Shown piece by piece: positions 1,766 to 8,994 of a stretch of 24,000 nucleotides of DNA. The DNA is from Planctomycetota bacterium (lineage in GTDB: Bacteria; Planctomycetota; UBA1135; GCA-002686595): NCBI GenBank assembly GCA_039821985.1, contig JBCBNC010000003.1, positions 71,219 through 95,218 on the forward strand, given 5' to 3'. The notes beneath the pieces were generated by a model. That model was given only the letters and a program-made list of their open reading frames with translations. It ran no database searches and was not told the DNA's origin. A program made the translations under genes and the position numbers. Positions within the stretch are counted from its first letter, which is position 1, and every line of letters starts with the position of its first letter.

Positions 1766-3451
1766 TCAGGTCCGCTCGACGCTGAACTCGGGGCGGTTGG
1801 GTGTGCCGTAGCAACTGAGCGCTCCGCGCTCACCAACCGCGTTCGGCCGCTGGAAGATCCAGTTCTGCCAGGCCGTCAGACGGCCAAAAATCTTGGTCTC
1901 CATCGTCTCCGGGCCGGCGAAGCGGAGGTTCGCCTCCATGCCGGTCAGAGCGTCGGGGGAGAAGCTCGCGCGCTCTTCGATCGCGAGGCGCAGCTCGTCC
2001 TCCCAGTCGATGTCGTCGGGTGCGAAGGTCGCCAGCCCGAGTTCGTTCGCCTCGTCGGCGGGGATCTGGCGCATGTGCTCGAGCACGCGGGCCACCTGAC
2101 CCGGGTCCTTGAGGAAGCGCGTCTCCAGCCGGGAGATGCCGTTGGACATGGGGAACATGCCCGCGTTCGCCGCGGTCACGCCGACCTCGACGGGGATGTC
2201 CGGGTCGTCGAGCACGTAGACGCGGTCGGAGCTCAGCGCGAGCTCGAGGAAGGTGCCCGTGAAGGACGAGCCCTCGCCGGCGATCGCGTAGAAGCTCTTC
2301 GCCGTGAGATCCATGCGCTTGAGCGTGCGCTTCACGAAGTGCTTGACCTCGTTCACGAACCAGTGGCTCGAGCCTGCGACCAGCCCGTCGGTCGAGCGCA
2401 CGGTCTCTGCGCTGCCCTCGGCGTGCACGAGCACGAGCGCGATGTCGCGCAGGTTCGTGCGCAGGTGCAGGAGCACGTCGTCGAGCTCGCGGAACGCGCG
2501 GAACAGCCACCAGTCGGCGCCTTCCGCGTACGCGTCGGCCTCGGACGTGGGGCACGCGTCCGGCGCGGTGATCGTCACCGTGGCCGTGCGCTGACCCTCG
2601 TCCAGCTCCATCCGCACGTGACGGTACGCCCACGACGAGCCTTCGATCGTGGGCTCGATCGGGTCGAGCGCAACGCCGGTCTCGCCCGAGCGGTCCTCGC
2701 GGGCGTCGGCCGCGGTGCGGGCTTCGCTCGCGACGAGCTCATCCCACTTGGAAAGCGGCGAGATCGCGTCCACGAGATCCCACTCGACCGCGCGCTTGCC
2801 CTTGATGCCCTCGGCGATGCTCGAGAACACGTCGCAGCGGTCCCGGCGGACCATGCGCTTGTCCGTAATCCGCGTAAGGCCACCGGTGCCGGGCAGCACG
2901 CCGAGCAGCGGCACCTCGGGGAACGAGACGGCGCTGTTGCGGTCGTCGACGAGCAGGATGCGGTCGCACGCGAGCGCGAGCTCGTAGCCGCCGCCCGAAG
3001 CGGTCCCGTTCAGCGCCGCGATGAACGTCTTGTTCGAGTTCTCCGACGCGTCCTCGATGCCGAGCCGGGTCTCGTTCGTGAACTTGCAGAAGTTCACCTT
3101 GAACGCGTGCGCGCTGCTGCGAAGCATCACGATGTTCGCGCCCGCGCAGAACACGCGGTCGAGCGCGCCCGTCACGACGACCGAGCGGACGCCGGGATGT
3201 TCGAAGCGCAGCCGCTGGATCGCGTCGCTGAGCTCGATGTCGACCGAGAGGTCGTAGCTGTTCAGCTTCAGCTCGTAGTCGTCGCCGCGCAGGCCGCCGA
3301 ACGGCTCGACGTTCATCGCCAGCTTCGCGACGTCGCCCTCCACCGTCAGCGTCCAGTGCCGGTAGCGGTCCGGATGGGTCTGGAACCGGATCATCCCGTC
3401 CTCGCCGAGGAGCTGGGAGACGTTGTCCGACGCGGGCTGTGTGGCGGTCAC
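1766..3451 (-). CDS. boxC: 2,3-epoxybenzoyl-CoA dihydrolase (benzoyl-CoA-dihydrodiol lyase) BoxC, crotonase superfamily
   Basis: Crotonase-fold motifs are present (RVFCAGANI, SGGGYELALACD, FPEVPLLGVLPGTGGLTR) in a ~560-aa two-lobed protein, with FQTHPDRYRHW near the N-terminus as in BoxC. I set the start at GTG 3451 because third-position GC drops in 3452-3496. ATG 3496 (track ORF start) is the alternative. Confidence 0.9.
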   Translation of the reverse strand: MTATQPASDNVSQLLGEDGMIRFQTHPDRYRHWTLTVEGDVAKLAMNVEPFGGLRGDDYELKLNSYDLSVDIELSDAIQRLRFEHPGVRSVVVTGALDRVFCAGANIVMLRSSAHAFKVNFCKFTNETRLGIEDASENSNKTFIAALNGTASGGGYELALACDRILLVDDRNSAVSFPEVPLLGVLPGTGGLTRITDKRMVRRDRCDVFSSIAEGIKGKRAVEWDLVDAISPLSKWDELVASEARTAADAREDRSGETGVALDPIEPTIEGSSWAYRHVRMELDEGQRTATVTITAPDACPTSEADAYAEGADWWLFRAFRELDDVLLHLRTNLRDIALVLVHAEGSAETVRSTDGLVAGSSHWFVNEVKHFVKRTLKRMDLTAKSFYAIAGEGSSFTGTFLELALSSDRVYVLDDPDIPVEVGVTAANAGMFPMSNGISRLETRFLKDPGQVARVLEHMRQIPADEANELGLATFAPDDIDWEDELRLAIEERASFSPDALTGMEANLRFAGPETMETKIFGRLTAWQNWIFQRPNAVGERGALSCYGTPNRPEFSVERT

Positions 3452-3524
3452 GGTGCTTCGTTCTGGGCTGGGGGGGCGCGGAGCGCGCCCACACATCGTT
3501 CGACGCGTGGGAGCCGATGGACAG

Positions 3525-3596
3525 CGCTCGATGCGAAAAATAGATCGCTCGGTGCGCTGAAGTATGAACTATAGTTTCCATTCAATGGCGACGCAA
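3525..3596. promoter_or_regulatory. Divergent boxC / boxR control region: AT-rich island, 11-bp direct repeats, 10-bp palindrome and a sigma70-like promoter facing boxC
   Basis: This is the only markedly AT-rich stretch in the window.
- Direct repeats CGCTCGATGCG (about 3525-3535) and CGCTCGGTGCG (about 3546-3556) match at 10/11 positions and are 21 bp apart.
- Perfect palindrome AACTATAGTT at 3567-3576 gives TATAGT on both strands.
- On the minus strand, TTGCGT (3596-3591) - 17 nt - TATAGT (3573-3568). Confidence 0.45.
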
Positions 3597-4352
3597 GACC
3601 GCTCCCTCCTCCGTGAACTCGGCGCGCGCATCCGCGGGCAGCGGGAGATCCTGCGGATGACGGTGACCGAGCTCGCCGAGCGGAGCGAGCTCTCGCGGCG
3701 CTATGTCACGGAGGCGGAGGCCGGTCGGGCGAATCTCTCGGTGCTCAAGCTGTCGCAGCTCGCCCGCGCGCTCCGCGTGTCGCTGGCGTCGCTCTGCGAT
3801 CTCCCCTCGACCCAGACGGGAGCGGAGCGGATCGCCCTCGTCGGGCTCCGGGGCGCGGGCAAGACCACCCTCGGGCGCGCCCTCGCCCGCGCTCTCGAGG
3901 TCCCGTTCGTCGAACTGGACGAGCGGATCGAGCGCAGCGCCGGCCTGTCCCTCGCGGCGATCTTCGACCTCGAGGGCGCAGAATCGTACCGGCGCCTCGA
4001 GCGGGAGGCCCTCGAGGAGGTCCTCGCCGAGGGCCAGCGCCAGGTCATCGCCACGGGCGGCTCCATCGTGACGAGCGAGGACACCTACGCGAGGCTCCGC
4101 GGTGCCTGCCGCACGGTGTGGCTGCGCGCCGCGCCCGAGGAGCACCTCCGCCGCGTCCTCGAACAGGGCGACCATCGACCGATCGACGGCCGTCCGCGCG
4201 CGTTCGACGAGCTGTGCGAGCTGCTCGAGCGACGCTCGTCGCTCTACGCGCTCGCGGACGAGGAGGTCCAGACGAGCCAGCGGACCCCGGACGAGGTCCT
4301 CGCCGAGCTCGTCGCGCGGATCGATCCGACCGATCCGACCCCGGTCGGCTGA
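3585..4352 (+). CDS. boxR: BzdR/BoxR-type transcriptional regulator (XRE-family HTH fused to a shikimate-kinase-like effector domain)
   Basis: N-terminal HTH (MTVTELAERSELSRRYVTEAEAGRANLSVLKLSQLARAL) is followed by a P-loop domain (IALVGLRGAGKTTLGRALA ... VIATGGSIV). This is the two-domain architecture of the benzoyl-CoA-responsive repressors BzdR/BoxR. The gene is divergent from boxCB. I prefer ATG 3585; the alternative ATG 3564 sits inside the AT-rich, low-GC3 stretch. Confidence 0.8.
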   Translation: MATQDRSLLRELGARIRGQREILRMTVTELAERSELSRRYVTEAEAGRANLSVLKLSQLARALRVSLASLCDLPSTQTGAERIALVGLRGAGKTTLGRALARALEVPFVELDERIERSAGLSLAAIFDLEGAESYRRLEREALEEVLAEGQRQVIATGGSIVTSEDTYARLRGACRTVWLRAAPEEHLRRVLEQGDHRPIDGRPRAFDELCELLERRSSLYALADEEVQTSQRTPDEVLAELVARIDPTDPTPVG

Positions 4353-4356
4353 CCGG

Positions 4357-5352
4357 TCACCGTCGACGGGATGCGAGCCGCGGCACGACGACCACGAAGT
4401 GCCCCGTGTCGAGGTCCTCGCCGGCGACGTCCGCGCCGAGGTCGTCCGCCTCGAGCATCGACACCACCGCGATGTTGAGGCCCGGCATTCGGCGCCGCAG
4501 TCGTTCGACGGTGCCGAGGCCGAAGTCGCTGTGGAACCGGCCGTTCCAGTGCACCACGGGCGGCGCCCCGTCCCCGCGGCGGCGGAGTGCGTCCGCGATG
4601 CTCTCGGCCATCGTGTCGTCCTTGAGGCACTGCGCCGCGAACACGCGGTCGAGCGCGCCCAGGTCTCCGCCCGGGGCGCCGTGGGACGTCCCGCTCATGA
4701 TCTCGCGGAAGCGTCGCTTGTACTCCCCGTCGCGCGTGTCGACCGACTTCGCCGACCAGACGTCGCCGAGGCCCGCCGCGAGCCCGTCTGCAGCGACCCG
4801 CGAAGCGAGCGGCCGGTAGACGTTCGCCGACACGACCTCGAAGCCGTTGTCGCGCGCGAAGTTGAACGCCGGCTCGTAGTGCTCCGCCCAGTTGCCCCAG
4901 AGCCGCGTGCCCTCGAGGAAGTTCTCCCGGTCGATCGCGCCCGAGAGGTAGAGCGCGACCCGCGGGCGCGCGTCGCGTTCGAGCATCTCCATCGAGAGGA
5001 TGACCTCGCCGCGGCGGCGGGCGATCGCCTCGGTCAGCGCGAGCTGCGCCGCGTGGCCCTCCGTCGAGTTGTGCAGCTCGCCGAGGAAGATCGCGTCCGC
5101 GCTCGCGAGCGCGTCGGCCGCCGCCTCGACCGTGACGCGCTCGTCCGCCGGCGTGCGCCGGATGGAGTAGCGCCCCGAGGAGCCCGGAACGCGTCCCGCG
5201 GGGACGAGTTCGACGGATGTCCGTTCCCCGCCGCGCCTCCCCGCCGGCGGAGCGGAGGCATCGGAGACCAGCGCACGCGGTCCGGTGCACGCGGCCGCGC
5301 CGATGGAGAGAAGGACGACGGCGGCGGTGCGCCGGAGAGCGGGAGCGGTCAT
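4357..5352 (-). CDS. ChaN-family (haem-binding uptake, Tiki-superfamily) lipoprotein
   Basis: Signal peptide with lipobox (VVLLSIGAAAC). IFLGELHNSTEGHAAQLAL motif and overall ChaN/Cofac_haem_bdg-like sequence (Pfam PF04187, ID from memory). Convergent with boxR, with 4 nt between the stops. Confidence 0.7.
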   Translation of the reverse strand: MTAPALRRTAAVVLLSIGAAACTGPRALVSDASAPPAGRRGGERTSVELVPAGRVPGSSGRYSIRRTPADERVTVEAAADALASADAIFLGELHNSTEGHAAQLALTEAIARRRGEVILSMEMLERDARPRVALYLSGAIDRENFLEGTRLWGNWAEHYEPAFNFARDNGFEVVSANVYRPLASRVAADGLAAGLGDVWSAKSVDTRDGEYKRRFREIMSGTSHGAPGGDLGALDRVFAAQCLKDDTMAESIADALRRRGDGAPPVVHWNGRFHSDFGLGTVERLRRRMPGLNIAVVSMLEADDLGADVAGEDLDTGHFVVVVPRLASRRR

Positions 5353-5440
5353 GGCCGGATGATCGCAGATCGCCCGGCCGGATGTCGCGCGTTCGACGGG
5401 AGGCCTCGGCCGGCGGGGTCGATCGCGCCCCGCGGCGCGC

Positions 5441-6367
5441 TCAGCGCACCTGACCGAAGAGTCTCAGATGCCGCCGTGTGACCTCGACCCAGGTCAGGAA
5501 GTCGATCGTGCCGAATTCTTCGTCGATCGCGGGCGGCCCGAGCACCCGCGCGCCGTGGCGCAGGTAGCTCGCGAACAGCTTGGGCACTTCGACCTCCTCG
5601 ACCTCGGTGCCCGGACGAACGGGCCAGTCGAGCAGCGGGCACGCGAGCGCGAGACGCGGCGGCGCGTGGTACTCGGGGTGGACCAGGCCGTCGCGCACGA
5701 GCTTGGCGTAGAGCGCCACGCCCTTCGCGGGGTCGGTGCCGGTGAGCGAGCTGCAGCCGAAGAACGCCTTGACGCCGTTGTGCTGCGCGTAGGCGATGAG
5801 CCCGTGCCAGAGGAGGAACAGGACCGTGCGGTCGCGATGCGCGCGGGCGACGCAGGCCCGGCCGAGCTCGGCCGCGTCCTCCAGGATCTCGGGCGGCAGC
5901 CCGCCGAGCTCGAATTCGCCGGCCGTGTACCAGCCGTGCCCGGTGCGCGCCGATTCGGCCACCTGCATCCGGTACGTGCCGACGACCGCGCCGGACGCGG
6001 CTTCGATCACCATCAGGTGCTGGCACTGGCGGTCGAACGCGTCGGCGTCGAGGCCGGTCTCGTGGGCGCCAGCGAGGCCCTCGCCCATCTCGACGTTGAA
6101 GACGGCATAGCGCAGCCTGCGGACGGACTCGAGGTCGGCGTCCGTCCGGGCGAAGCGCAGCTGGTACTTGCCCAGCGCGACGTCCGTGTCGGGCGCGAGG
6201 TCGAGGCGGTCGAGCAGGGTGCTTCCGCGGGGGGAGTCGTTGGCGGCGGACAAGGTGCGGTGGCGCGGGGTGCCAGTGCTGAGCGGGGAGGGGACGTCGC
6301 TCAGTGCGGGGAAGGGACGAGCCAGTGACGACCGAGTTGATACCCCAGCGCGTGGAGCGCGGCGCAT
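5441..6367 (-). CDS. GNAT-family N-acyltransferase of the OlsB / hemolysin-like N-acyl amino acid synthase type
   Basis: The C-terminal ~245 aa carry YQLRFARTDADLESVRRLRYAVFNVEMGEG, GTYRMQ and ELGRACVARAHR, typical of the OlsB/GlsB/NAS branch (Pfam PF13444, ID from memory). The ATG overlaps the upstream stop (TGATG, shared base 6367). The N-terminal ~60 aa are low complexity, so the true start is uncertain. Confidence 0.8.
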   Translation of the reverse strand: MRRAPRAGVSTRSSLARPFPALSDVPSPLSTGTPRHRTLSAANDSPRGSTLLDRLDLAPDTDVALGKYQLRFARTDADLESVRRLRYAVFNVEMGEGLAGAHETGLDADAFDRQCQHLMVIEAASGAVVGTYRMQVAESARTGHGWYTAGEFELGGLPPEILEDAAELGRACVARAHRDRTVLFLLWHGLIAYAQHNGVKAFFGCSSLTGTDPAKGVALYAKLVRDGLVHPEYHAPPRLALACPLLDWPVRPGTEVEEVEVPKLFASYLRHGARVLGPPAIDEEFGTIDFLTWVEVTRRHLRLFGQVR

Positions 6368-8994
6368 CAAGGTCTGCTCAGGATCTCGTGCGGCAGTTTC
6401 AGGTGCTGGGCCTGACCCTTTCTGTACTTACGGAGTTCCTGGAGGATGCCGAGGAGCCCGACCGTCGGCGCGCCCAAGGCCGCGTTGGCGGCCCCGATGC
6501 GGTACGCGAGGGTCCACTGGGCCCACAGGGTCCGGTACGCGGCGAGGACCGAGAATTTCGGGTCGTAGACGTTCGTCGACTCGGACGTGACCCCGTTCAG
6601 CTCGATGACCCGGAGCCCGACGCCCTCGGCGAATGCCTCCTCGGACGGCGCGATGACGTCGAAGCGCCCGAAGTGGAAGCCCTCGAAGCGCGACGCGATG
6701 CGCTCGACGGCCTCCTCCAGGGCGGGCGTTCTCAGGTGCTCACCGTCGAGGAAGATCGCCCCGCGCGCATGGGTCCCGACCTCGACGAGCCGGCGGACCT
6801 CGCCCTCTGGCAGCACCGCTTCGGCGTCCTGCCCGAGCTCCGCGAGGTAGGCCCCGTGCATTGCGCAGGCGCGCGGGTCGTCGAGCAGGAGCTCCTCGAC
6901 GGTCCGCCGGCCGTCCCCGACGACCTCCGGGAGCTGCTTCACGGTCACGGAGAAGACGCGGCCGCGCTCGGCGCCGGGCTCGCGGACCCAGAACACGCCG
7001 AACTCCGGTCCGTGGACGACCTGCTGCAGGATCGCGTCGTGCTCCAGCTCGCGGGCGTGGCGCACGGCGTCATCGGCGCGGTCGAGGAGCGCCACCCCGC
7101 TGCCGCGCTGACCGGCGTCGGGCTTCAGGACCACGGGCAGGTGCCCGTCGGCGTCGACGAACGCGCGCGCCCGCTCCGCCCGCGCGTCGGGTCCGTCGCT
7201 CGCGCGCAGGAGCGCGAAGTCGGGGATCTCGGGGTGCTCGGGCCCGAGGCCCTCGAGGATCGCGGACTTGGACTCTCCGACGAAGCCGCCGGCGGGCAGC
7301 GCGGGGTTCGCGGCCGTGCACTTCGCGAGGCCGCCGTGCCGGACGCCGAGCCAAGCGACGTGCGGCAGGACGGGCAGGTAGGTGATCCACGGCGGCCAGA
7401 ACTCCCAGCGCGTCAGCCGCAGCCAGCGCCCGCGCAGGATCCGCCGGCCGCGGTGCGTGAACACGAGGGGCAGGTTCCGGTACAGGAGGAGCAGGCCGAG
7501 GACGAGCGCGACGAGCCACGGCAGCTGCCGTGCGCCCAGGCCGCCCAGCGCGTGCGCGAGCTGCTCGCCGGCGAGCGCGGCGATCCCGACGAGCGCCGGA
7601 GTCCAGATCAGGCCCGCGACCGCGAAGAACAGCGCGAAGCGCGCGAAGCTCGTGCGCAGGACGCCCGCCGCGACGTACGTCGGCAGCCGCAGTCCGGGCG
7701 TGAAGCGCGAGAGGAAGATGACCGCGATGCCCTTGCGGTCGAACCAGCGGCTCGCGCGCTCGACCGCCTCCTCCGACGCGATCCACGAGAGCGGACGTCG
7801 GTGCAGCGCGGCGCGGCCGAACGCGCGCCCCAGCAGGTAGAGCAGCATGTCGCCGACGAAGATCCCGACGAAGCACGCGGCGGATCCGGCGACCCACGAC
7901 AGCCGGCCGTCGGCGACGAGCAGCCCCGCGCCGATGCACGCGAGATCCTCCGACACGAGCGTCGCGACCGCGAGGAGCAGCAGCACCGTGAACAGCGCTG
8001 GTCCCTCGAACGGAGGGACCGACGCGGGGTCGAAGGGCTCGTTCGCTCGCGCGAGTCGCTCAGGCGCCGCCGTGGAACGAACCGGCGCGGCGCCTGCGTC
8101 GGCGCGGTCGAGGAACGCGTCGATGTACCCGACGACTTCGGGCGCCTGCTCCCACGGGAGGAAGTGGTGGGCGGGCTCGGGGAGCACGACGAGCTCGGCC
8201 TGCGGCACGATGCGCGCGTGCTCGCGCGCGGCCGCGACGGGGACGAGGAAGTCGCCCTCGCCGTGCAGGACGAGCGCCGGCGGCGCGAACGACTCGAGGA
8301 TCCCGCGCAGCCGCCGCTGGTCCGTGTCGGCGAAGTTGCGCGCGTAGGGGAGCCCGAGGAACGAGCCGTCGAGGCGCCCGAAGTGCGGTACGAGCCAGCG
8401 CGCGGCGCGGAACAGGCCGACCTGGAGGAGGTGCAGGCCGTGGTTGAGCTGATGGTCGCCGAGGAGCTCGAGCTCCTCCACGCCCAGCGCCGCGAGCATC
8501 GTCAGCGACGCGACGCGTTCGGGCGCGGCCGCGTACAGCTCGAGCGCGACGCCGCCGCCCATGCTGAAGCCGACGGCGTGCACGCGCTCGACCTCCAGCG
8601 CGTCGAGCAGCGCGAGCACGTACCCCGCGTGCGCGCGGACCGAGTAGTCCGGGGCCGCGCGCTGCGACGCCCCGAAGCCCGGCAGGTCGACGGTGAGGAC
8701 GCGTCGCTCCTCGGCGAGCGGCCCGCGCAGGGCTCGGAGCTCGGAGCTGCTCCCGGGGCTCCCGTGCAGGAGGAGCACGGCTTCGTTCGCTCCCTCCGGT
8801 CCCTCGTCGAAGTACGCGACGCGCACATCGGCGCCGCCGTCGACCGGAAGGCCGTCGCCCCCGATGGCCGCGACCATGAGCGAGGGGCGGTCCGTGGGCG
8901 CAGGGGGCTCGGCGGGCTCGAGGCCCATCGCGAACCACGACGCGACGAGCGCCGCCGCGTAGGCGAACGCCAGGAGCTTCGCGACGCGTCCCAT
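6367..8994 (-). CDS. 875-aa three-domain fusion: signal-anchored alpha/beta hydrolase + DedA/VTT membrane domain + C-terminal ATP-grasp ligase
   Basis: - **Hydrolase, aa ~60-300:** LLLHGSPG, GFSMGG (Ser144), HGEGD, PAHHF.
- **DedA/VTT, aa ~335-480:** SEDLACIGAG, GDMLLYLLGR, FLSRFTPGLRLPTYVAAG, within hydrophobic helices.
- **ATP-grasp, aa ~565-860:** VVLKPDAGQRGSGV, QQVVHGPEFGV, RVIELNGVTSES.
- **Expression signals:** GAGG lies 6 nt before ATG 8994. The stop overlaps the next ATG. Confidence 0.85.
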   Translation of the reverse strand: MGRVAKLLAFAYAAALVASWFAMGLEPAEPPAPTDRPSLMVAAIGGDGLPVDGGADVRVAYFDEGPEGANEAVLLLHGSPGSSSELRALRGPLAEERRVLTVDLPGFGASQRAAPDYSVRAHAGYVLALLDALEVERVHAVGFSMGGGVALELYAAAPERVASLTMLAALGVEELELLGDHQLNHGLHLLQVGLFRAARWLVPHFGRLDGSFLGLPYARNFADTDQRRLRGILESFAPPALVLHGEGDFLVPVAAAREHARIVPQAELVVLPEPAHHFLPWEQAPEVVGYIDAFLDRADAGAAPVRSTAAPERLARANEPFDPASVPPFEGPALFTVLLLLAVATLVSEDLACIGAGLLVADGRLSWVAGSAACFVGIFVGDMLLYLLGRAFGRAALHRRPLSWIASEEAVERASRWFDRKGIAVIFLSRFTPGLRLPTYVAAGVLRTSFARFALFFAVAGLIWTPALVGIAALAGEQLAHALGGLGARQLPWLVALVLGLLLLYRNLPLVFTHRGRRILRGRWLRLTRWEFWPPWITYLPVLPHVAWLGVRHGGLAKCTAANPALPAGGFVGESKSAILEGLGPEHPEIPDFALLRASDGPDARAERARAFVDADGHLPVVLKPDAGQRGSGVALLDRADDAVRHARELEHDAILQQVVHGPEFGVFWVREPGAERGRVFSVTVKQLPEVVGDGRRTVEELLLDDPRACAMHGAYLAELGQDAEAVLPEGEVRRLVEVGTHARGAIFLDGEHLRTPALEEAVERIASRFEGFHFGRFDVIAPSEEAFAEGVGLRVIELNGVTSESTNVYDPKFSVLAAYRTLWAQWTLAYRIGAANAALGAPTVGLLGILQELRKYRKGQAQHLKLPHEILSRP

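Follow-up and report, generated by a model that had tools for sequence, protein, structure and literature searches.

A Three-Domain Gene and Its Operon

On the minus strand of the window, the 24,000-nucleotide stretch of Planctomycetota DNA that was analysed, lies a gene cluster with the order olsA-like, dinB-like, tango2-like, fusion and olsB-like (Table 1). The ATG of the dinB-like gene overlaps the stop codon of the olsA-like gene (ATGA), the tango2-like gene and the fusion are separated by 26 nt, and the ATG of the olsB-like gene overlaps the TGA of the fusion (TGATG). Judged from the sequence, the fusion is translationally coupled to the OlsB-like gene and is in one operon with the OlsA-like gene. 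Both acyltransferase genes match NCBIfam families below the family cut-offs, i.e., lyso-ornithine-lipid O-acyltransferase for the OlsA-like gene (3.2e-41, 141 bits, cut-off 300) and OlsB for the OlsB-like gene (4.6e-36, 124.9 bits, cut-off 350). The original prediction was made without genomic context, and the OlsB-/OlsA-like operon is added here.

Table 1. Genes of the cluster, and domains and residues of the fusion protein (window positions).
Feature	Position	Strand	Basis or remark
OlsA-like (PlsC-type) O-acyltransferase	10477..11400	-	First gene of cluster; Pfam Acyltransferase 4.4e-20
DinB_2-like protein, 215 aa	9833..10480	-	Pfam DinB_2 7e-5, 23.7 bits, just under cut-off 24.8
TANGO2/NRDE-like protein	9021..9845	-	Begins Met-Cys; Pfam TANGO2 3.2e-8, 34.5 bits, cut-off 22.6
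Alpha/beta-hydrolase / DedA / ATP-grasp fusion, whole gene	6367..8994	-	875 aa, one unbroken ORF
N-terminal signal-anchor helix, residues 2-25	8920..8991	-	Hydropathy peak and model helix; N-terminus predicted cytoplasmic
Alpha/beta-hydrolase domain, residues ~55-300	8095..8832	-	Pfam Abhydrolase_1; predicted periplasmic
Hydrolase Ser144 (GFSMGG)	8563..8565	-	Invariant in 50 homologues
Hydrolase Asp248 (HGEGD)	8251..8253	-	Invariant in 50 homologues
Hydrolase His277 (PAHHF)	8164..8166	-	Invariant in 50 homologues
DedA/VTT membrane domain, residues 331-511	7462..8004	-	Pfam PF09335 VTT_dom
Arg-/aromatic-rich juxtamembrane segment (RWEFWPPW...), residues 512-590	7225..7461	-	N-terminal part of ligase module
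ATP-grasp core, residues 591-866	6397..7224	-	Profile against PDB, Foldseek, RimK-passing relatives; predicted cytoplasmic
ATP-grasp Lys624	7123..7125	-	Invariant in 50 homologues
ATP-grasp Asp779	6658..6660	-	Invariant in 50 homologues
ATP-grasp Glu798	6601..6603	-	Invariant in 50 homologues
ATP-grasp Asn800	6595..6597	-	Invariant in 50 homologues
OlsB-like GNAT N-acyltransferase	5441..6367	-	Pfam Acetyltransf_5 6e-28

The fusion begins at the first ATG, GTG or TTG past the upstream stop, with GAGG 10 nt upstream of the start, and its GC content by codon position (0.89 at the third, 0.53 at the second) matches the pattern of the other real genes in the window. The whole protein was modelled by AlphaFold with a pLDDT of 88.8 and a pTM of 0.72. 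More than 120 full-length relatives share 48-68% identity with it, and a relative is encoded in at least 576 species genomes; the loci belong to Planctomycetota, Acidobacteriota, Rhodothermales, Desulfobacterales, Myxococcota and other groups. As the full-length homologues are so many and the three parts are contiguous in 82 of the 82 related loci examined, the fusion is due neither to chance nor to a frameshift, and it is a genuine gene conserved across phyla. The single three-domain reading frame claimed in the original prediction is borne out by the unbroken frame, third-position GC content and homologues, while separate genes joined by a sequencing error are excluded by the contiguity. No published account of the three-domain architecture was found in the literature, and the claim that it is uncharacterised stands.

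The linkage to Ols-type genes is conserved across phyla. Near the fusion an OlsB-like gene is found in 59-60 and an OlsA-like gene in 50-52 of the 82 loci (59 and 50 for a distance of up to 8 kb), and a DinB-like and a TANGO2-like gene are nearby in 50-51 and 27-28 loci, respectively. Among adequately flanked loci 45 of 55 have an OlsB- or OlsA-like gene within 8 kb, i.e., about 18% of the well-flanked loci have neither. There are no peptidoglycan or polyprenyl genes among the conserved neighbours.

Domains and Membrane Topology

The predicted N-terminal anchor was recovered both as a hydropathy peak and as a helix in the AlphaFold model. The hydrolase matches Pfam Abhydrolase_1 with 98 bits (9e-28, cut-off 25.8) and its Foldseek matches in PDB are serine esterases; together with the invariant triad, the Pfam match confirms the complete Ser-Asp-His signature noted earlier. 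The DedA/VTT core is likewise supported, by PF09335 (9.1e-19, 68.6 bits, cut-off 33.9) and by residues E349, D350, D382, R430, P433, G434 and R436, invariant in 50 homologues. From the invariant residues, the secondary structure of the model and the loop charges, the domain runs from a first re-entrant helix, whose tip is S-E-D (E349/D350), through TM2 and amphipathic helices on the cytoplasmic side to a second re-entrant helix (R430...PG...R436), TM3 and TM4.

The hydrolase is predicted to be periplasmic and the ATP-grasp domain cytoplasmic because of charge statistics across the family and signal peptides on two-domain relatives, evidence that backs, as a prediction, the two-sided topology proposed originally. 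The tail before the first helix holds 374 K+R against 70 D+E in 111 three-domain homologues, and the net loop charges are +3.9 after TM2 and +6.7 after TM4. The two-domain relatives begin right at the first re-entrant helix, and their N-terminal tails are acidic or carry Sec or lipoprotein signal peptides. Compared to UptA the fusion is short of some eight residues of hairpin 1 and of the TM helix that canonically precedes it at the N-terminus, so that the chain would pass straight from the periplasm into this hairpin. A periplasmic entry of hairpin 1 has been published for DedA (10.1101/2021.10.18.464800) and fits the two-domain relatives; topology papers on YqjA and TMEM41B also agree with the topology inferred for the fusion.

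Within the DedA family the domain most resembles the COG0586/UptA subfamily. It shares with COG0586 proteins (UptA, YqjA, YghB) the VTT core and the two re-entrant helices, the first with acidic residues at its tip and the second with R-x5-R, but differs from them in having enzymes fused on both sides. DedA fusions listed previously comprise only rhodanese, PAP2 and pyridine-nucleotide-disulfide oxidoreductase domains, and for the two arginines of COG0586/UptA a role in binding the phosphate group of undecaprenyl phosphate has been proposed (PMC10127716). It is conceivable, if quite improbable, that the domain is an UptA-like undecaprenyl-phosphate flippase, that the enzymes act on a polyprenyl or cell-wall substrate and that the aminolipid neighbours are linked for regulation only. 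The acidic tip and R-x5-R are COG0586 hallmarks, UptA is the best DedA family match in NCBIfam and Ddl-/CphA-like ligases are tied to cell-wall or polymer chemistry; however, the UptA match (3.8e-15, 56.5 bits) is far from the cut-off of 250, the canonical N-terminal helix and part of hairpin 1 are absent, and the conserved neighbours are OlsB-/OlsA-like.

Support from profile models differs between the domains: the hydrolase and DedA have Pfam matches, whereas no Pfam match to ATP-grasp was obtained for the whole fusion or for its C-terminal part searched alone. The ATP-grasp assignment is nevertheless borne out by other profiles, fold searches, relatives and invariant residues (Arg777 in addition to those of Table 1). 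NCBIfam gave weak matches to cyanophycin synthetase (1.6e-7, 29.8 bits against a cut-off of 850) and N-acetylglutaminylglutamine synthetase. A family profile run against PDB retrieved ATP-grasp enzymes only, with 7ta5 as best match (6.7e-7), and some family members pass the Pfam RimK threshold (e.g., P0253, 41.4 bits against 21). The C-terminal domain modelled alone (pLDDT 83.5) had only CphA, GshF or Ddl among its best 50 Foldseek matches in PDB, led by CphA2 (7ta5, E 1.4e-9) and followed by CphA1, GshF and Ddl. The cyanophycin synthetase G domain, GshF, RimK and Ddl thus have the fold in common with the fusion ligase, as well as the ATP-/Mg-binding residues (K624, a Gly-rich loop, R777, D779, E798 and N800), but identity to CphA, GshF and Ddl is only 14-23%, scores are far under the family cut-offs and the M and N domains of CphA are missing.

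Where ATP-grasp ligases usually have a soluble N-terminal substrate subdomain, the fusion has the aromatic, Arg-rich juxtamembrane segment joined to DedA. It is probably interfacial; E531, W533, Y539, P541, P564, G570, E574 and K576 are invariant in 50 homologues, and the segment is kept in two-domain and stand-alone relatives. A soluble substrate is hard to explain for a ligase tied to the membrane with such a conserved segment. This, and the OlsB-like N-acyltransferase already adjoining the fusion, makes it unlikely that the ATP-grasp domain produces a soluble dipeptide for N-acylation by the OlsB-like enzyme, or forms a fatty acyl-phosphate and from it the N-acyl amide, as reported for Legionella acyl-histidines, with DedA serving for export only. 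That explanation draws on the L-amino-acid ligases and Ddl among the sequence and fold relatives, and on a route by which an ATP-grasp enzyme makes N-acyl amino acids, cited in PMC11631085.

What stays constant among the relatives is the DedA/ATP-grasp core, to which the hydrolase is an optional addition. The two-domain form has Ols-type neighbours as well and lies downstream of olsB-like and olsA-like genes; ATP-grasp paralogues that truly stand alone are found in contexts of other kinds, unrelated to this one. The dispensable hydrolase and the paralogues would fit three domains joined for co-expression or membrane anchoring, with unrelated substrates and no coupled pathway. We regard this as highly improbable, as the DedA/ATP-grasp junction is kept in most of the matches listed, full-length or two-domain, and in 82 of 82 loci, which span several phyla, the parts follow one invariant order and every catalytic residue is retained.

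A Candidate Aminolipid Pathway

An amino-acid lipid not described so far is probably synthesised, flipped and remodelled by the fusion, for which we infer a "make, flip, trim" role. With slightly less than even confidence we propose that the protein is a bitopic machine that modifies lipids in an aminolipid pathway and acts on an N-acyl amino-acid lipid. Since the operon context is OlsB-/OlsA-like, the substrate is likely to be of the ornithine-lipid (OlsB/OlsA) type, and an aminoacyl-phosphatidylglycerol-type substrate, as suggested originally, is disfavoured.

The original analogy to MprF and its periplasmic hydrolase holds for the logic only. MprF with PA0919/AcvB also has a cytoplasmic head-group enzyme fused to a lipid-translocating domain and a periplasmic alpha/beta hydrolase acting on the flipped lipid. 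Kinship was rejected because a Pfam search found no LPG_synthase_C, LPG_synthase_TM or VirJ domain in the fusion. Unlike MprF, the fusion would take energy from ATP through an ATP-grasp fold rather than from aminoacyl-tRNA, has DedA as membrane part, carries the hydrolase on the same polypeptide and lies in the context of OlsB/OlsA-type aminolipids instead of phosphatidylglycerol (PG). There is a small chance that the ATP-grasp domain esterifies a free amino acid to a hydroxyl of PG or another lipid, independently of tRNA, with DedA flipping and the hydrolase trimming the product. Domain order and inferred topology agree with this, the DedA arginines could bind the lipid phosphate, and ester formation is possible for ATP-grasp enzymes, with VanA-type D-Ala-D-Lac ligases (1e4e) among the fold matches. 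On the other hand, besides the missing MprF or VirJ/AcvB domains, the conserved operon partners do not point to PG metabolism and the closest ATP-grasp relatives extend a carboxylate-bearing acceptor rather than acylate hydroxyls.

In the proposed aminolipid pathway, the OlsB-like and OlsA-like enzymes would first produce an N-(acyloxyacyl) amino-acid lipid in the cytoplasmic leaflet. Second, the Arg-/Trp-rich juxtamembrane segment would hold the ATP-grasp domain at the membrane, where it would phosphorylate the free head-group carboxylate of the lipid, chemically like a peptide C-terminus. Third, the ligase would add an amino acid or amine, and the aminolipid so formed would be amidated or of the dipeptide type, as the chemistry of Ser-Gly lipids or taurine-ornithine lipid requires. 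Fourth, DedA, with the acidic pair of hairpin 1 and the two arginines of hairpin 2, would carry the lipid to the periplasmic leaflet and, fifth, the tethered periplasmic Ser-Asp-His hydrolase would de-O-acylate or transacylate it. In support of this, the closest ligase relatives (cyanophycin synthetase G domain, GshF, Ddl, RimK) extend an alpha-carboxylate by an amino acid.

Counted against the pathway are the OlsB-/OlsA-like scores far below the NCBIfam equivalog cut-offs, the well-flanked loci without such genes together with the stand-alone paralogues, and the UptA-like character of DedA with arginines of the undecaprenyl-phosphate type. Cluster-bearing organisms are not known to contain a lipid whose head group is the predicted one; Ser-Gly and Orn-Ser-Gly head groups do exist.

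The fusion shares its operon with OlsB-like and OlsA-like genes and in this resembles the OlsBA, OlsF and OlsHI pathways; like OlsC, OlsD, OlsE and OlsG it would modify the head group. ATP-grasp and DedA proteins are absent from the known Ols enzymes. One alpha/beta hydrolase, OlsI, already takes part in making aminolipids, where it works as an O-acyltransferase (PMC12493201); compared by description, the fusion hydrolase differs from this biosynthetic enzyme in being predicted periplasmic. A ligase of the proposed kind would fill gaps in the literature, as the serine-adding enzyme of flavolipin synthesis is not known (PMC10191378) and no gene has been assigned to the ATP-dependent transfer of taurine to the carboxyl of ornithine lipid. 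The predicted ATP dependence of the fusion fits the latter reaction (cerilipin; PMC12971839).

Gene Integrity and Domain Content

The fusion is encoded by a minus-strand frame of 875 residues without any break. The ATG at position 8994 is the sole start, the frame being open further upstream but without an alternative start; a GAGG lies about 10 nt ahead of this ATG and the stop codon of the preceding gene 26 nt before it. The GC content by codon position (0.81/0.53/0.89) matches that of a real gene in a window of 73% GC. The source is a metagenome-assembled genome (MAG) of a Planctomycetota bacterium. A frameshift or fusion artefact can be ruled out because the single frame is kept in 82/82 loci. 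The uninterrupted three-domain open reading frame of the original prediction was in this way borne out, as hydrolase, DedA and ligase parts are contiguous in every locus examined. The cluster members MEL6429021.1 and MEO1696163.1 have a length of 875 aa.

The N-terminal part scored 98 bits with Pfam Abhydrolase_1 (threshold 25.8), and the top Foldseek matches to it were esterase structures. In an alignment of 50 homologues the HGSPG oxyanion motif is invariant together with the nucleophile S144 in its G-x-S-x-G elbow, the acid D248 and H277, and this part is accordingly predicted to be an alpha/beta serine hydrolase. The middle part matched PF09335 (VTT/DedA) over residues 357-471 with 68.6 bits (gathering threshold 33.9). 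COG0586 proteins are defined by a first re-entrant helix with an acidic tip and a second with a basic tip (PMC10127716), and the fusion contains both, i.e., a helix-break-helix (331-347/349-361) in which E349 and D350 are invariant, and a helix-TPGL-helix (423-431/436-445) in which R430 and R436 are invariant. D382 of the DedA part is likewise invariant in the 50-sequence alignment. The scores with the UptA equivalog models of NCBIfam stayed far below their cut-offs (56.5 bits vs 250 and 42.2 vs 300), which counts against a rival explanation where the fusion has an undecaprenyl-phosphate-related function.

HMMs thus supported the hydrolase and VTT domains that had been predicted, but not the ATP-grasp domain, for which the fusion itself has no Pfam match; scanning the C-terminal 361 residues alone returned only DUF7839, which is meaningless, and no curated ATP-grasp threshold of Pfam or NCBIfam was passed by the fusion. 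Four other lines of evidence show that the C-terminal third of the fusion is an ATP-grasp domain. First, its NCBIfam matches, weak and far under the cut-offs, are to ATP-grasp enzymes throughout. Second, a PDB search with the single sequence was marginal (0.053), but a profile of 18 family members matched 47 PDB sequences, of which the significant ones were ATP-grasp ligases only, the best being CphA2 (7ta5, 6.7e-7), aligned from the lysine of VVLKP to the IELN motif. Third, a Foldseek search with the whole fusion model gave alpha/beta hydrolases only, and a separate C-terminal model was therefore needed. The AlphaFold model of residues 521-875, for which the alignment was built from sub-sequences of the search hits, had a pLDDT of 83.5 and a pTM of 0.82 and adopts a predicted ATP-grasp fold; only CphA1/2, GshF and Ddl were found among its top 50 Foldseek matches in the PDB, with 7ta5 as the best (E 1.4e-9, probability 1.00). 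Fourth, relatives of the same family pass the Pfam RimK threshold of 21 bits, namely the proteins P0253 (41.4), P0151 (25.7) and P0183 (25.6).

The putative catalytic residues of the ATP-grasp domain, i.e., the ATP-binding K624 in VVLKPD, the Gly-rich loop GQRGSGV (628-634), R777, D779 and the Mg-binding E798/N800 of IELN, are invariant among the 50 homologues and align with the same motifs in CphA2. All residues picked out originally (S144, D248, H277, K624, E798, and N800) turned out to be invariant. A ligase acting on a soluble substrate is a rival explanation. The match to the cyanophycin synthetase equivalog was 29.8 bits against a cut-off of 850 and spanned only some 108 residues, all in the G domain; the set of N, G, and M domains that makes up CphA1 is not present in full in the fusion.

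Membrane Topology

The N-terminus of DedA proteins is cytoplasmic and the first re-entrant hairpin periplasmic according to published work on the cysteine accessibility of YqjA and on TMEM41B. A naive reading of this arrangement would place the hydrolase of the fusion in the cytoplasm. The canonical first transmembrane (TM) helix of DedA is, however, absent in the fusion's subfamily. The starts of the two-domain relatives, which contain DedA/VTT and ATP-grasp but no hydrolase, carry 25 K+R vs 52 D+E in 27 complete proteins and are of three types: just 10-16 hydrophobic residues ahead of the invariant S-E-D tip, an acidic tail without K or R, or a Sec or lipoprotein signal peptide (...LVSC, ...LVGC, ...VWA|E). 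These starts suggest that the chain comes into hairpin 1 from the periplasmic side. In the three-domain proteins the tail preceding the N-terminal helix is strongly positive (374 K+R vs 70 D+E in 111 proteins), which together with the two-domain starts argues against a cytoplasmic hydrolase and suggests that an N-terminal signal-anchor carries the hydrolase to the periplasm. The net charges across the alignment agree with a periplasmic hydrolase and a cytoplasmic ligase: +2.7 in the N-tail, -1.0 after the anchor, 0.0 before hairpin 1, +3.9 in the loop between TM2 and hairpin 2, -0.3 in the TM3-TM4 loop and +6.7 after TM4. Sequence statistics therefore favor the two-sided arrangement proposed originally, with the hydrolase outside and the ligase inside.

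In the two-domain proteins P0144, P0169, and P0207 a lipobox (LVSC, LVGC) or Sec cleavage site is located right ahead of the first re-entrant helix, and the N-terminus of DedA would here become lipid-anchored or a free periplasmic end.

Family Size and Forms

More than 120 full-length homologues of 844-923 aa share 48-68% identity with the fusion. With each species represented by a single genome, at least 576 loci were found to encode relatives, and searching 1.8 billion representatives with a profile gave 1,619 clusters at 50% identity (E<=1e-30). The carriers include Planctomycetota, Acidobacteriota, Rhodothermales, Desulfobacterales, Myxococcota, KSB1, Calditrichota, Verrucomicrobiota and others, and the family is frequent in phyla of soils and sediments. 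Proteins of about 850-900 aa contain all three domains, those of about 510-620 aa VTT and ATP-grasp without the hydrolase, and those of about 350-430 aa the ligase alone, the latter class being in part fragments or mis-calls and in part genuine. As two-domain forms without the hydrolase exist, DedA and ATP-grasp make up the constant core, to which the hydrolase is an add-on. That the hydrolase is dispensable would fit an unlikely rival explanation, in which the domains are joined but functionally uncoupled.

A genuine stand-alone ATP-grasp paralogue of 398 aa, on locus L083, keeps the aromatic juxtamembrane segment in an unrelated context; its neighbors are an aldo-keto reductase and an uncharacterised protein of 255 aa, and DedA, hydrolase or OlsB/OlsA neighbors are absent.

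Genomic Context

The fusion is the fourth of five genes in a tightly packed minus-strand cluster (see the table).

Genes and other features of the fusion locus and of related loci
Feature	Sequence	Coordinates	Strand	Remarks
olsA-like	window	10477..11400	-	gene 1; ATGA overlap with dinB-like
dinB-like	window	9833..10480	-	gene 2; 13-nt overlap with TANGO2/NRDE-like
TANGO2/NRDE-like	window	9021..9845	-	gene 3; starts Met-Cys; 26-nt gap to fusion
fusion	window	6367..8994	-	gene 4; TGATG overlap with olsB-like
olsB-like	window	5441..6367	-	gene 5
sigma-70 region protein	window	11507..14113	-	868 aa
HTH_3-shikimate kinase	window	3564..4352	+	262 aa
ChaN/Tiki-type protein	window	4357..5352	-	
ferric-reductase-like/Rieske protein	L082	4731-5786	+	
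stand-alone ATP-grasp paralogue	L083	7001-8197	+	398 aa
olsB-olsA-dinB-fusion cluster	L085 (CP011806.1)	3375-8038		Acidobacteria bacterium Mor1

Within 8 kb of the fusion an OlsB-like protein is encoded in 59 of 82 loci, an OlsA-like and a DinB-like protein in 50 each and a TANGO2-like protein in 27. Unsupervised clustering of the flanking ORFs recovered the same four partners and little besides. An OlsA- or OlsB-like gene is present in 45 of the 55 loci with adequate flanks, the commonest gene order is olsB-olsA-dinB-(tango2)-fusion, and a two-domain member from Blastocatellia is located directly 3' of olsB-like and olsA-like genes. In the window these neighbors scored 124.9 bits vs 350 (OlsB) and 141.1 vs 300 (OlsA) with the NCBIfam equivalogs, and are from their sequences best termed OlsB-like and OlsA-like.

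The TANGO2/NRDE-like protein (Pfam, 34.5 bits), encoded immediately 5' of the fusion and kept in 27-28 of 82 loci, has the Met-Cys start that an N-terminal-nucleophile hydrolase-like fold would have. In a lipid operon it could conceivably be an amidase, or serve in acyl transfer or acyl-CoA binding. The gene of the DinB_2-like protein (215 aa; 23.7 bits, slightly short of the Pfam cut-off) shows translational coupling to the olsA-like gene through the ATGA overlap, and about 50 of the 82 loci have it next to the fusion.

Comparison with Known Systems

The three parts can be assigned to the ATP-grasp, DedA and alpha/beta-hydrolase superfamilies, and because scores for UptA, cyanophycin synthetase and RimK are under the cut-offs, the fusion is placed outside all characterised families within these. 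Surveyed fusion partners of DedA are rhodanese, PAP2 and pyridine-nucleotide-disulfide oxidoreductase only (PMC10127716), and full-text searches of the literature on DedA together with ATP-grasp, aminolipids, OlsB and TANGO2 found no description of the three-part architecture; the view that it had not been characterised thus stands.

The fusion was originally likened to MprF with its periplasmic hydrolase (PA0919/AcvB), and phospholipid aminoacylation is accordingly a rival explanation. The working logic is indeed alike, but no domain is shared: a Pfam scan of the whole protein (E<=0.01) found only hydrolase and VTT families, with neither LPG_synthase_C/DUF2156 nor the MprF flippase TM region, the VirJ-type domain of PA0919/AcvB was not among the matches, and the hydrolase has only the general alpha/beta fold in common with PA0919/AcvB. 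While the predicted domains, topology and novelty remain, the likely substrate is moved to aminolipids of the OlsB/OlsA type and the tie to MprF becomes an analogy only. The fusion would be a lipid head-group modifier joined to a flippase.

A Possible Mechanism

The product of OlsB/OlsA-type enzymes retains a free alpha-carboxylate, a group that ATP-grasp ligases like CphA-G, RimK, GshF and Ddl activate by phosphorylation and then join to an amino group. OlsB-type GNATs use acyl-ACP to form N-(3-hydroxyacyl) amino acids, to which a second chain is attached by OlsA-type enzymes (PMC11631085). It is tempting to speculate that at the inner leaflet the ligase would extend or amidate the aminolipid head group, the lipid probably entering through the Trp-, Phe- and Arg-rich juxtamembrane segment (E531, W533, Y539, and P541 are invariant), that DedA would then translocate the lipid, and that in the periplasm the tethered Ser-Asp-His esterase would de-O-acylate or transacylate it. 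That the fusion is a coupled, two-sided modifier of a lipid from the aminolipid pathway is probable; for the specific chain of extension by the ligase, flipping by DedA and remodelling by the esterase the chances are close to even. More tentatively, and with the balance somewhat against it, the family may be the missing aminolipid head-group ligase, where an ATP-grasp enzyme working on a membrane lipid would add a further amino acid or an amine to the carboxylate of an N-acyl amino acid, fused as it is to a DedA domain that flips the same lipid and a periplasmic esterase that remodels it.

The mechanism fits known chemistry that lacks a gene, i.e., addition of taurine to the ornithine-lipid carboxyl, of serine to glycine lipid, and Orn-Ser-Gly head groups. 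No gene is known for the ATP-dependent taurine transferase of cerilipin according to reviews (PMC12971839), and the serine-adding step on glycine lipid is unknown (PMC10191378). For such reactions, an ATP-grasp ligase encoded within an operon of the OlsB/OlsA type makes a concrete candidate, and if the proposal is true, aminolipids with peptide head groups would form a new class, present in Acidobacteriota, Planctomycetota and other phyla. The transport substrates of DedA proteins are a long-standing question. A DedA located between an inside ligase and an outside hydrolase on one chain would name its own substrate, making flipping testable with a defined lipid, and would be the first DedA protein with a lipid substrate specified by its own fused enzymes. 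A widespread, unannotated family hereby opens both the aminolipid gap and the DedA-substrate question to experiment.

Additional Observations on Flanking Genes and Annotation

Directly upstream of the aminolipid operon is the gene of the 868-aa protein, whose first approximately 225 residues contain sigma-70 regions 2 and 4 of the ECF type and whose C-terminal extension of about 640 residues has no Pfam match; the protein may be a fused sigma/anti-sigma regulator. In another protein of the window (262 aa), an XRE-type HTH_3 is joined to a complete shikimate-kinase domain (SKI, 1e-36), which is an unusual regulator-kinase combination. The ChaN/Tiki-type protein with a "haem-binding uptake" domain (Cofac_haem_bdg, 5.6e-48), encoded downstream of the olsB-like gene, is a neighbor in no more than 6 of 82 loci, those of the closest relatives in Planctomycetota. 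Upstream of olsB-like genes in the related locus L082 and 16 others, a membrane protein with ferric-reductase-like TM and Rieske [2Fe-2S] domains, absent from the window, may be a lipid hydroxylase or desaturase partner.

Public names of family members are generic ("alpha/beta fold hydrolase," "VTT domain-containing protein") or wrong. The Saltatorellus ferox orthologue P0389 (WP_419191286.1/QDV06959.1/UniProt A0A518ES88) is named [quoted passage not shown] which looks like a mis-annotation propagated via AcoC-like alpha/beta-hydrolase similarity; an AcoC-like model tops the NCBIfam list of the fusion too. Similarly, the apparent stand-alone ATP-grasp protein of Acidobacteria bacterium Mor1 is an annotation artefact, as only a 347-aa C-terminal piece is called in the public record and about 2.9 kb left unannotated, while the complete olsB-olsA-dinB-fusion cluster is present there in frame.
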